Assembly: GCF_000015585.1 (NCBI RefSeq)
Contig: NC_008789.1
Location: 1,230,001 to 1,262,000, forward strand
DNA: 32,000 bases
Source of the DNA: Halorhodospira halophila SL1
GTDB lineage: Bacteria; Pseudomonadota; Gammaproteobacteria; Nitrococcales; Halorhodospiraceae
Direction: 5' to 3'
This document shows positions 16,569 to 19,261 of this stretch, piece after piece (position 1 is the stretch's first letter; each line of letters starts with the position of its first letter). The notes beneath the pieces are model-generated. The model was not told where the DNA came from. It made no database searches and saw nothing but the letters and a program-made list of their open reading frames with translations. A program made the position numbers and the translations under genes.

Positions 16569-19061
16569 CTATATACCCTTACGTGAAGGGTCCCTCGTGT
16601 GCGTTCTTATGAATTCTGTGGACGATAGGCCATGATCGTGTAACGCCTCGTGCACTCGCTTAGGATTTTCTAACATCCCAGGAGCGCCAAGAGACTCGGC
16701 AAATTTGGTTAACGCGTCGATCAAGTCTTTTAGCTGCTTCTCCGATATTATCCTCATCCCTTCCGGCGGCGACGCCTGCTTATCCAAGACATACTTTGGA
16801 TGAGCCATAACAGGTATGGCCTCAGGAACTTCCCCATACCTGTCAACGAACCAATTCATTGAACCCGACAACTGATCTACCTCACCCTTTGCAATCACAT
16901 CAGCTTCTGAACGGTTCTTGCACTCAAGAACAAGGAATCGACCACCATCGAGCGCCCATAAACCATCCGGGCCTTGCCCAAAATCAATTTCTGGTCTTTG
17001 CGTCGCAAATCCAAGAAGTCGCCCAATATCGGCAACAGCCCTCTCAAATCGCTGGTTTGGATGTTCCGGCGAATACCTAAGGTCTGCTTTAAGTTCATTC
17101 ACCCACAAGAGCAAATCGTTGTGTTCAAGAAAGCTTTCTTGCCTGTATTGAATAACTTTTGATACCTGAGCATCCGTTGCGATCGACAGCTTCTGATAGC
17201 CCACACCTCTAAGAGGGCGTGTCACTTGACGATTTTGCTTATGCGCAGACAATAGTATTTCCTGCGCCGTGGACGGGTCATAAAAATTCTTCAACTCGGC
17301 CAACCTGACTTTCAACCACGCCTTTAGTCGCGCTTCCTCCGCACAATTAACAGCTTTCTGTATAATTTCAGCCGCTTTTGGGAATTGCCCTACCAACGCT
17401 GTATTAAATGCTTGCCTTAATGCCACAGCCGATGGCTCCAAGCGCCCCTCGCTCGGTGGTTCAACGTCGACTAGCGCCCTTTTACTAGCCTCTATCCAGC
17501 CTGGATCACGATCCAAACATTTACTAATTACATTTTCGAGATCTGCGACACCGCCACCTTCCAATTGCTGGGCAAGCTCTGCAGATAAGTCTAACTGCGC
17601 CTTGGTCGCCGGCGTAAACTTTTTACGTCCTTTTGCGGAATGAAGTCTCCGGCTTAATCCAGCTCCAACAAGCAATACAACGCAGTGATCATCATTAGAC
17701 CGAACTCCTCGGCCCATACCCTGTTCGATCCTTTGTATTTGTCTCCGAAGAGTGACTTCAGTCTCATCAAGCGCGGCAGTGTCGGTGCGCTGGATCAAGG
17801 AGCGCGCTTCTGGCAAACCATCAATCACAAGAATCCTGCAGGCCCCGTCAGGCAGGTCAATGCCATCGTATTTATTGACAAGAACTGATAAACCAACGTG
17901 CTCATCCCTAAGACGTCTCACGCCAGCAGTCATGTTTTGGGCGATGAGGATCTGATCTGATATATCCTTCCATTGCGTTACTGCCCGGAGGGAAGGAACA
18001 ATCACGACAACATTATATTTCTTAGCGAACCCTTGAAGCATTCCCTTTATAGATGGGAGTTGTATGTCTGGATTGACTTCCTGTGGGACCAGGATCATCC
18101 GCTCGCCAAGATCATCCGCTGTTTTCGGTGTAATGACTTTATGGATCGCTTCTGGATCCGCATTGAACTCGGTAACTAAGACGCTATCGTCAGAGAGCGT
18201 CGCTGTCATGTAGATGCGCCTTTGTGCGTATGCAAAGGACGGTATGACATCTATTGGAATACAGGTCGGCGCGATTTCTATCTCACTGCCACCAATTACG
18301 TAACGGCAGAGCTGTAGAACGTCAGCAATAAGTGGAAAATTAAACTTGATGCTGTCGTCGCTTTTATGCTCGTGCAAGATTTTAACAAGTTCTTCGTTTT
18401 TCTGCTGCCACACCCAGAAGGGCACCTCTTGATATGAGAATGGATCACCTGATCGTATATCCAGTGCTGCCCGAGGGCTTTGATCATAAAGTGAATCGTA
18501 AAATAAGTCTAAGATTTTACTGTAGGCTAAATGGTTACTTGGAATTGTTATCTTGAATTGATCTCGCGTAGTTTCGAGGCAAGCATGAGCATCATCGATT
18601 AACAAAGTGCCAATTTCTATTTTTCTGCCTTCTTCGCCTACGCCAAATCGTGAGCGTCCATTCAATAGTTTATGCACATAGGTAACCAGAACTTTTCGAC
18701 CTGCCGTAAATCCTGGATCGTCTTCATTATTTGTCGCTTCAACTCCGAGCAAAGTAGCTTCATTAAGCACCTGATCCGCCAGGAACCGATCTGGAGCAAC
18801 ATAGACGACTGGTGATATTTTTTCTCGGAGAGAACTTTGGAGTATTAGCAGCCCGACAGTAGTCTTGCCACTGCCAGTGTTCATTTTTATTATAAGATCT
18901 TTCTCTTTACGGCGCTCGTACCAACGTTCTAGGACTTGACCTTGGACATCCCTCAAATATGAAAACTTTTTGTCTTTACTTGGAAGAGTTGTGAATATTT
19001 TCCTCGGTTCAGTAATTACTTCACCGCTACCTCGGGCCAAGTTAGAAAAATCTACAGTCAT
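16569..19061 (-). CDS. SF2 DinG/XPD-like helicase fused to a C-terminal PD-(D/E)xK nuclease domain (Hna-like architecture)
   Basis: The helicase motifs are:
- Walker A: KMNTGSGKTT
- motif II: LLIDDAHA
- motif III-like: MTATLS
- DinG/XPD-type HD2 block: NKYDGIDLPDGACRILVIDGLP
- motif VI: QGMGRGVRS

The C-terminus has FERAVADIGRLLGF...GPDGLW...FLVLECK (D...E.K). GGAG lies 8 nt before ATG 19061. The ORF track extends to 19148. Confidence 0.8.
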   Translation of the reverse strand: MTVDFSNLARGSGEVITEPRKIFTTLPSKDKKFSYLRDVQGQVLERWYERRKEKDLIIKMNTGSGKTTVGLLILQSSLREKISPVVYVAPDRFLADQVLNEATLLGVEATNNEDDPGFTAGRKVLVTYVHKLLNGRSRFGVGEEGRKIEIGTLLIDDAHACLETTRDQFKITIPSNHLAYSKILDLFYDSLYDQSPRAALDIRSGDPFSYQEVPFWVWQQKNEELVKILHEHKSDDSIKFNFPLIADVLQLCRYVIGGSEIEIAPTCIPIDVIPSFAYAQRRIYMTATLSDDSVLVTEFNADPEAIHKVITPKTADDLGERMILVPQEVNPDIQLPSIKGMLQGFAKKYNVVVIVPSLRAVTQWKDISDQILIAQNMTAGVRRLRDEHVGLSVLVNKYDGIDLPDGACRILVIDGLPEARSLIQRTDTAALDETEVTLRRQIQRIEQGMGRGVRSNDDHCVVLLVGAGLSRRLHSAKGRKKFTPATKAQLDLSAELAQQLEGGGVADLENVISKCLDRDPGWIEASKRALVDVEPPSEGRLEPSAVALRQAFNTALVGQFPKAAEIIQKAVNCAEEARLKAWLKVRLAELKNFYDPSTAQEILLSAHKQNRQVTRPLRGVGYQKLSIATDAQVSKVIQYRQESFLEHNDLLLWVNELKADLRYSPEHPNQRFERAVADIGRLLGFATQRPEIDFGQGPDGLWALDGGRFLVLECKNRSEADVIAKGEVDQLSGSMNWFVDRYGEVPEAIPVMAHPKYVLDKQASPPEGMRIISEKQLKDLIDALTKFAESLGAPGMLENPKRVHEALHDHGLSSTEFIRTHTRDPSRKGI

Positions 19062-19261
19062 TATTTGTGCTCCTGCATTTTCGATCGATAGCGTGCCATT
19101 TTTTGCTTGTAACATAATTAACGGGGCAATGAGAACCCATACTCTCAAATTAGTTGAAGAAGGTGATGGGGTTTATAAGAGCGGTATTACCGGTCCTCTC
19201 GCGGATTGTATAGGTGACACCTGATTGCCGCGGGGGTAGTAGGCCGACGGCCTGACCCGAT

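Follow-up and report, generated by a model that had tools for sequence, protein, structure and literature searches.

What is a lone low-GC gene for a helicase-like protein doing between insertion sequence (IS) elements, a few kilobases from a restriction-modification (R-M) operon, on the chromosome of Halorhodospira halophila SL1? The gene lies on the minus strand (16569..19061) of the 32,000-nucleotide stretch of contig NC_008789.1 that we analysed (positions 1,230,001 to 1,262,000, hereafter the window, whose coordinates are used throughout). The initial annotation had read its product as an Hna-like fusion of a superfamily 2 (SF2) helicase with a PD-(D/E)xK nuclease, adding that it may be a distinct family. 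Our results make it very probable that the gene belongs to the Hna family, in which a single protein acts on its own as an anti-phage defence, and that it was horizontally acquired as part of an integrative defence island at a tRNA-Phe gene. What our analysis shows is that it belongs to this family, keeps its catalytic residues, has the fold, stands as a single gene and lies in a mobile defence island.

The assignment is carried by homology over the full length of the protein. In PADLOC, it matched the model of PDC-S28 (PDLC04986) from end to end (E=0, 1025.6 bits), and Hna of Sinorhizobium meliloti scored 1019 bits on the same model. Scores this close indicate that the label PDC-S28 denotes the Hna family itself. 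The other PADLOC matches were weak (CasDinG, with 59.7 bits for typeIV_DinG, and PbeA, SngC, Cas3 and HamB). The family profile gave one strong match among PDB sequences, the 845-amino-acid (aa) chain of entries 10UJ, 9YHN and 9YKJ (E 3.4e-200, profile positions 3-825), and the matched entries, which are cryo-electron microscopy structures, are described in Foldseek as 'Hna Monomer' and 'Hna Dimer'. BLASTP aligned our protein with S. meliloti Hna at 32% identity over 817 aa (E 2e-130), the sequence of the latter being residues 2-842 rebuilt from the HMMER alignment with an initial Met, and with the last 3 of its 845 residues missing. The Hna-like reading of the initial annotation is thus supported by the profile match, BLASTP, the fold and the shared PADLOC model, and the caveat of a distinct family finds no support. 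We are thus dealing with a known, characterised family that gains a new and somewhat divergent member, not with a new family.

Relatives are numerous, with more than 4,000 of them in the protein database. Among the best 120 listed, all are full length, the closest non-identical one is 65% identical and the others are at most 51% identical. Where they are named, they carry the label 'DEAD/DEAH box helicase' only, as does the H. halophila protein itself in public records. The identification is correct yet ordinary, since the structure and mechanism of Hna are already published, and its value is mostly one of annotation: it concerns thousands of relatives that have no other name in public records. 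It also ties the PADLOC v2 label PDC-S28, an untested 'phage defence candidate' that shows no real difference from Hna, to an experimentally characterised family. The PDC set comprises 145 untested candidates predicted by 'guilt-by-embedding' (Payne et al. 2024, bioRxiv 10.1101/2024.01.29.577857).

The open reading frame (ORF) at the locus spans 16569..19148 on the minus strand and gives 859 aa from a TTG start, which confirms the ORF of the initial annotation. The true start is likely the ATG at 19061, which yields 830 aa followed by the stop codon at 16569-16571, because that Met is where the PADLOC profile starts and where every homologue does, because the 830-aa product is called in three independent public assemblies, and because a Shine-Dalgarno sequence, AGGAG (19070-19074), sits 8 nucleotides (nt) upstream. 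The in-frame extension to the TTG (19062..19148, minus strand) is probably an untranslated leader; alignments and profiles begin at the ATG. The coding sequence so defined is the one recovered by the PDC-S28 match, by the profile match to Hna in the PDB and by the public gene calls. Its GC content is 46.7% (43.7% at third codon positions), with a local minimum of 43.4%, against 70.0% for the backbone (window 1-12400). An earlier hand count had given about 43%: the contrast with the backbone is real, and the figure was slightly low.

The predicted architecture comprises four parts, whose boundaries are estimates from the predicted model (all on the minus strand, residues in 830-aa numbering). 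HEL1 (18162..19061, about residues 1-300) is the first of the two RecA-like domains of the SF2 core and bears a reduced, Arch-like insertion of helices, as supported by Pfam ResIII/DEAD matches, invariant columns and the model. It carries the Q-motif residues R37 and Q40, the Walker A motif GSGKT (residues 63-67, nt 18861-18875), motif II DDAH (residues 156-159, nt 18585-18596) and motif III TATL (residues 286-289, nt 18195-18206). HEL2 (17622..18161, about residues 301-480), the second RecA-like domain, is of the DinG/XPD type by Pfam Helicase_C_2, invariant columns and Foldseek, and carries YDGIDLP (residues 398-404, nt 17850-17870) and motif VI, QGMGRGVRS (residues 447-455, nt 17697-17723). 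An all-helical link (17100..17621, about residues 481-654; helices H484-660 in the AlphaFold2 model) leads from HEL2 to the nuclease domain and aligns throughout with S. meliloti Hna in both the profile and the BLASTP alignments. NUC, the C-terminal PD-(D/E)xK nuclease domain (16572..17099, residues 655-830), is defined by a domain model, Foldseek and conservation. Its core residues are E691 in QRPE (nt 16989-17000), P698 and D699 in GPDG (residues 697-700, nt 16962-16973), E713 and K715 in LECK (residues 712-715, nt 16917-16928), and Q730, and they do not vary among 121 sequences. The key residues of these motifs are invariant across a 32-sequence family alignment and the motifs are therefore not chance matches. 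The full set of SF2 motifs and the nuclease motif proposed in the initial annotation were all located where it had placed them, its coordinates for ECK (nt 16917-16925) being exact.

Pfam sees only generic pieces of this architecture, namely ResIII/DEAD at residues 65-193 (ResIII E-value 1.6e-11) and Helicase_C_2 at residues 416-495. The structural models are more specific. The AlphaFold2 model of the whole protein, built from the family alignment, has a mean predicted local distance difference test score (pLDDT) of 87.8 and a predicted template modelling score (pTM) of 0.72, and includes the helical insertion between motifs II and III. Its best PDB match in Foldseek is the Hna monomer (E 1.4e-66, template modelling (TM) score 0.68, 837 aligned columns), followed by two Hna dimer chains and then by XPD, DinG and CasDinG at E ~1e-11 and TM ~0.4. 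When residues 655-830 were modelled alone, the pLDDT rose to 95.8 and the pTM to 0.90, and the top Foldseek match was the NUC domain of Hna (TMq 0.87, root-mean-square deviation 2.1 A). The further matches, to the FokI cleavage domain, VRR_NUC, NucS/EndoMS, LmuA and Nt.BspD6I, are all of the PD-(D/E)xK type, which places a nuclease fold at the C-terminus, where the initial annotation had expected it. The secondary structure of the domain (helix, three strands, helix, strand) has E691, D699, E713-x-K715 and Q730 at canonical positions, and sub-threshold Pfam matches to Mrr_cat, Hjc and Card1_endonuc are in line with the nuclease fold. As for an iron-sulphur (Fe-S) cluster, the protein has no cysteines between Walker A and motif II, and its eight cysteines are scattered over its length; the missing four-cysteine cluster agrees with how Hna has been described in print, as a DinG/XPD-like protein that lacks an Fe-S cluster.

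The positions with known roles in S. meliloti Hna, as reported by Hooper et al. (PMC13381803), were mapped through a 121-sequence alignment that includes this protein. Of the two residues that coordinate ATP, R36 and Q39, the counterparts are R37 and Q40; the glutamine is invariant and the arginine is present in 79 of the 121 sequences. The ATP-binding Walker A lysine (K66) is invariant as well, and so are the residues of the nuclease metal site (P712, D713 and E727, here P698, D699 and E713) and the nuclease lysine K729, whose change to alanine gives a nuclease-dead protein (here K715). With every catalytic and ATP-site residue conserved, the H. halophila protein is likely to share the exonuclease chemistry and to be under ATP-linked control. 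The dimer interface differs. The HEL1 loop at that position is of similar length, and T30, D31 and P34 correspond to K31, K32 and Y35, in columns that vary among the 121 relatives. As far as the alignment tells, this non-conserved interface is the one clear difference from S. meliloti Hna.

The published biology of Hna suggests how the protein might work. The S. meliloti enzyme is a Mg2+/Mn2+-dependent 3'-5' exonuclease acting on DNA with free single-stranded 3' ends, and it spares double-stranded DNA, 5' overhangs and single-stranded RNA (Hooper et al. 2026, Nat Commun, PMC13381803). Its ATPase is stimulated by single-stranded DNA, it does not unwind duplexes, and its nuclease is inhibited by ATP binding, not hydrolysis, through stabilisation of a homodimer in which NUC is disengaged (PMC13381803). 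The ATPase site competes with the nuclease site ('kinetic partitioning'), a phage SSB (a protein that binds single-stranded DNA) splits the dimer and thereby releases the nuclease, and the toxicity underlying abortive infection stems from the nuclease activity (PMC13381803). That the single gene suffices, which is known for S. meliloti Hna only, and that its phenotype is abortive come from Sather et al. 2023 (Cell Host Microbe), as summarised in PMC12445080. For H. halophila, we infer by homology to this protein how the enzyme acts, that ATP inhibits it, what triggers it and that infection ends in abortion. In the uninfected cell, the DinG/XPD-like SF2 core of the protein, devoid of an Fe-S cluster, would bind ATP, and the nuclease would stay silent; in the S. 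meliloti protein, the silent state is the ATP-stabilised homodimer with a disengaged nuclease domain. Unwinding of duplex DNA would not be expected. Once released, the C-terminal PD-(D/E)xK domain (D699, E713, K715) would degrade DNA bearing free single-stranded 3' ends, proceeding 3'-to-5' with Mg2+ or Mn2+, and the infected cell would presumably die or stop growing with no release of phage.

The organisation of homologous loci agrees with a system that needs one gene. We compared 80 loci encoding homologues, from Alpha-, Beta- and Gammaproteobacteria, Actinobacteria, Bacteroidota, Legionella and one Bacillales genome. Their flanks have no conserved gene in common: the commonest cluster of neighbours occurs in 6 of the 80, all Legionella or close relatives, and the nearest relative (P0002) has a different neighbour gene. 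The three ORFs of 256, 287 and 392 aa that lie closest to our gene had no tblastn matches in the 80 loci, which speaks against them as partners, and showed no Pfam or NCBIfam match and no PDB sequence match of note. Homologues are found on 271 plasmids, on 200 of them with at least 80% coverage, and the protein has a full-length match to a PHROG family (phrog_16128, 714 bits). Among phage records, tblastn returned a single match, a mis-filed contig of a Salmonella genome. The lack of a conserved partner, the homologues on plasmids and the PHROG family together fit a mobile, single-gene system.

Several points weigh against a simple transfer of the S. meliloti model to this gene. Identity to the sole biochemically characterised member is only 32%, so that the activities of the H. 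halophila protein are inferred. We know of no phage or trigger for this host. A scan for promoters and terminators around the gene gave matches at chance level and no convincing promoter, and the position of the gene between IS elements leaves its expression uncertain. Finally, the ATP-dependent dimeric auto-inhibition and the competition with SSB at that interface may not carry over unchanged: S. meliloti Hna loses the auto-inhibited dimer that depends on ATP when T30/D31/P34 are mutated (PMC13381803), and the lack of conservation in the interface loop makes both the dimer geometry and the nature of the trigger uncertain here. It is therefore possible, if on the whole unlikely, that we are dealing with a variant of the same reading, an Hna-family protein regulated or triggered differently from that of S. 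meliloti, through another oligomeric interface or a phage factor other than SSB. The change to K31, K32 and Y35 at positions that vary across 121 relatives argues for it, as do the low identity and the expectation, voiced by the authors of PMC13381803, that trigger recognition is diverse among Hna orthologues; the conserved architecture, Q-motif and catalytic residues argue for regulation of the known kind. A bolder and rather doubtful version would make our protein and its 65% identical relative a divergent Hna branch, devoid of the S. meliloti dimer residues, that is inactivated in a different way or responds to some phage factor that is not SSB. In that case, the Hna scaffold would amount to a general nuclease switch, gated by ATP, whose triggers are interchangeable. 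In either case, the non-conserved dimer loop poses a testable question, that of the reach of the S. meliloti regulatory model across the family. The gene might also be a silent or decaying passenger, currently functionless, as an IS3 element and an ISL3 remnant on either side and the absence of a promoter above chance could suggest. We find this improbable, given a full-length frame in which every invariant residue of the family is intact, a good Shine-Dalgarno sequence and a protein sequence that is identical in three independent assemblies.

Two other readings would remove the gene from the Hna family altogether, and we regard both as extremely improbable. The Pfam ResIII match in the N-terminal ATPase region, together with a type I R-M operon that lies on the same strand at a distance of 3 kb, could point to a helicase subunit of the restriction type, be it a type III Res or a motor accessory to the neighbouring type I R-M system. 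Yet ResIII is a generic SF2 match confined to residues 65-193, no mod gene is present, the sole methylase of the island is HsdM, 9.7 kb away, and the type I system is a full set that brings HsdR, HsdS and HsdM of its own. R-M genes accompany homologues in only about 5 of the 80 loci, and the match over the whole length is to Hna. With a generic ATPase match, no mod and a self-sufficient type I system, this reading was rejected. A housekeeping repair helicase of the DinG/XPD type, or the CasDinG (Csf4) of type IV-A CRISPR-Cas, could be proposed from the Helicase_C_2 match, the weak typeIV_DinG match in PADLOC and the structural likeness of the model to XPD, DinG and CasDinG. Here the scores decide. 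Nothing in NCBIfam came near its cut-off (DinG 13.9 bits against 789, dinG_rel 23.4 against 547.7), neither the Pfam nor the NCBIfam scan returned a strong match to a housekeeping DinG or a type III Res, and Hna matches better by more than 50 orders of magnitude. The protein also has no Fe-S cysteine cluster, the gene has a foreign base composition and lies in an integrative island, no cas genes were found among the island proteins, and the repeats in the window, with units of 87-90 nt and non-unique 'spacers', do not form a CRISPR array. Both the housekeeping and the CasDinG versions were rejected on the scores, the missing Fe-S cluster, the lack of cas genes and CRISPR, and the foreign GC content.

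As a member of the Hna family, the protein compares with known systems as follows. With S. meliloti Hna (SMa2245; PDB 9YHN for the monomer, 9YKJ for the dimer, and 10UJ) it is collinear over its full length, through HEL1, HEL2, the helical linker and the PD-(D/E)xK NUC domain, and it shares the Walker A lysine, the Q-motif, motifs II and VI and the nuclease P-D...E-x-K residues. Both proteins lack an Fe-S cluster and both are single-gene systems on mobile DNA. They differ in length (845 against 830 aa), in location (the pSymA megaplasmid against a chromosomal tRNA-Phe island) and in how they are known, the former by phenotype and biochemistry, the latter from sequence and models alone. XPD/DinG proteins and the ExoDinG proteins, such as Staphylococcus aureus DinG, likewise have an SF2 core, a second RecA domain of the Helicase_C_2 type and an Arch-like insertion, but our protein has no Fe-S cluster and scores far under the cut-offs of the XPD/DinG families. 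ExoDinG proteins carry their nuclease as an N-terminal DnaQ-like domain, whereas the nuclease here is a C-terminal PD-(D/E)xK domain. Hooper et al. compare Hna to the ExoDinG proteins, which are likewise 3'-5' exonucleases of single-stranded DNA (PMC13381803).

CasDinG is another DinG-like SF2 ATPase without an Fe-S cluster that serves in defence, and it gives weak profile and fold matches. The matched CasDinG structures are of ~580-606 aa and align with the helicase part of the model only; in contrast to CasDinG loci, the H. halophila locus lacks cas genes and a CRISPR array, and the PADLOC score of 59.7 bits compares with 1025.6 bits for PDC-S28. Hachiman HamAB, Nhi, Gabija and Cas3 share the logic of an ATPase or helicase sensor coupled to a nuclease effector, but they are different protein families, and the PADLOC matches to HamB and Cas3 are marginal and limited to the Walker A region. 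Hachiman and Gabija are moreover two-gene systems. Several helicase-plus-nuclease defences are likewise triggered by phage SSB (PMC13381803).

The gene sits in an island whose limits can be traced. A tRNA-Phe gene (12463-12538, plus strand; ARAGORN, Rfam) marks the left end, with attL within 12463..12599. A 75-nt stretch at 12525-12599, which includes the 3' end of the tRNA, recurs at 92% identity (blastn) on public contig NRRO01000012.1 of assembly GCA_016583685.1, our source for the region beyond the window end (hereafter L084), at 2940-3014, which corresponds to window coordinate ~37803-37877. This imperfect direct repeat at both ends delimits an island of ~25 kb that contains the hna gene. 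From the tRNA onwards, the order is integrase, IS3 element, 256-aa ORF, hna, ISL3 remnant, 287-aa ORF, 392-aa ORF, the operon hsdR/PDC-S14/hsdS/abiD/hsdM and a tandem array, followed beyond the window by alpA and a primase-like gene. The integrase is a tyrosine integrase (12707..14053, plus strand) with Pfam Arm-DNA-bind_3, Phage_int_M and Phage_integrase matches. At the far end (L084 4512-7465) lie alpA and the gene of an 893-aa protein that matches PHROG families of DNA primase and polymerase/primase. The presence of alpA and of this primase-like protein suggests a P4-like integrative or satellite-type element with defence genes as cargo.

The low-GC block that contains hna is flanked on one side by an IS3-family transposase pair, orfA/orfB (14567..15713, plus strand; ORFs, with Pfam HTH_Tnp_1 and rve on the public record), and on the other by an ISL3-family transposase remnant reduced to its zinc ribbon and helix-turn-helix (19262..19816, plus strand; Pfam Zn_ribbon_ISL3 and HTH_Tnp_ISL3). 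The 256-aa ORF (15700-16470, plus strand, GC 57.7%) is convergent with hna, has a 14-nt overlap with the end of the IS3 transposase and is gene-called in two public assemblies; none of the libraries gave a match to it, and it is missing both in the 80 homologous loci and on the contig of the nearest relative. The 287-aa ORF (19928-20791, minus strand) has a GC content of 51%, below its surroundings, and matches a PHROG family of unknown function (phrog_23933, E 7.6e-38), with no Pfam, PADLOC or NCBIfam match. Next to it, 31 nt downstream of hsdR and on the same strand, the 392-aa ORF (20925-22103, minus strand) gave weak PADLOC PDC-S11 matches (E ~2e-6) and contains an 'LVECKLW' motif resembling the PD-(D/E)xK core. 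Pfam, NCBIfam, PHROG and the PDB sequences returned no match to it, and it could serve defence or assist R-M as a gene not yet characterised.

The type I R-M operon is encoded entirely on the minus strand and comprises hsdR (22134-25313), hsdS (26434-27723) and hsdM (28837-30954). Between hsdS and hsdR lies a PDC-S14 match (25433-26437; GIY-YIG/DUF4357, 425 bits), and between hsdM and hsdS an abiD gene (27720-28676; Abi_2). Such a type I system with AbiD and PDC-S14 inside is the textbook 'embedded defence gene' pattern (Payne et al. 2024). The initial annotation had described the hna gene as free of any methylase, cas or helicase neighbour, which is accurate for the directly adjoining genes and misses the complete type I operon that starts 3 kb away on the same strand. 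Hna and a type I system that has both AbiD and PDC-S14 embedded in it share one integrative element at tRNA-Phe, which makes the locus a clean case of a defence island.

The gene-free stretch of 2.5 kb between hsdM and alpA contains a tandem array of ~9-10 units of 87-90 nt, which runs from 31290 to 32000 in the window and on to ~32115 beyond it (L084 8700-9530). Each unit has a conserved core of ~28 nt, (T)CGATACCCCCCTTGTATGAGCCGGGTGG, and the inter-core sequences fall into two or three similar classes, so the array is not CRISPR-like. It matched no Rfam family, its core had no exact match in viral or metagenome collections, and RNA folds of single units were not clearly better than those of shuffled sequences (z 0.07 to -2.07). 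A 209-aa ORF (31366-31995, minus strand) with a 'TRLIQGGYR' repeat reads through the array and may be spurious, and a cluster of GGTACAC repeats lies nearby (L084 8320-8430). Our guess is that the array serves the adjacent primase-like gene as iterons or as an origin of replication.

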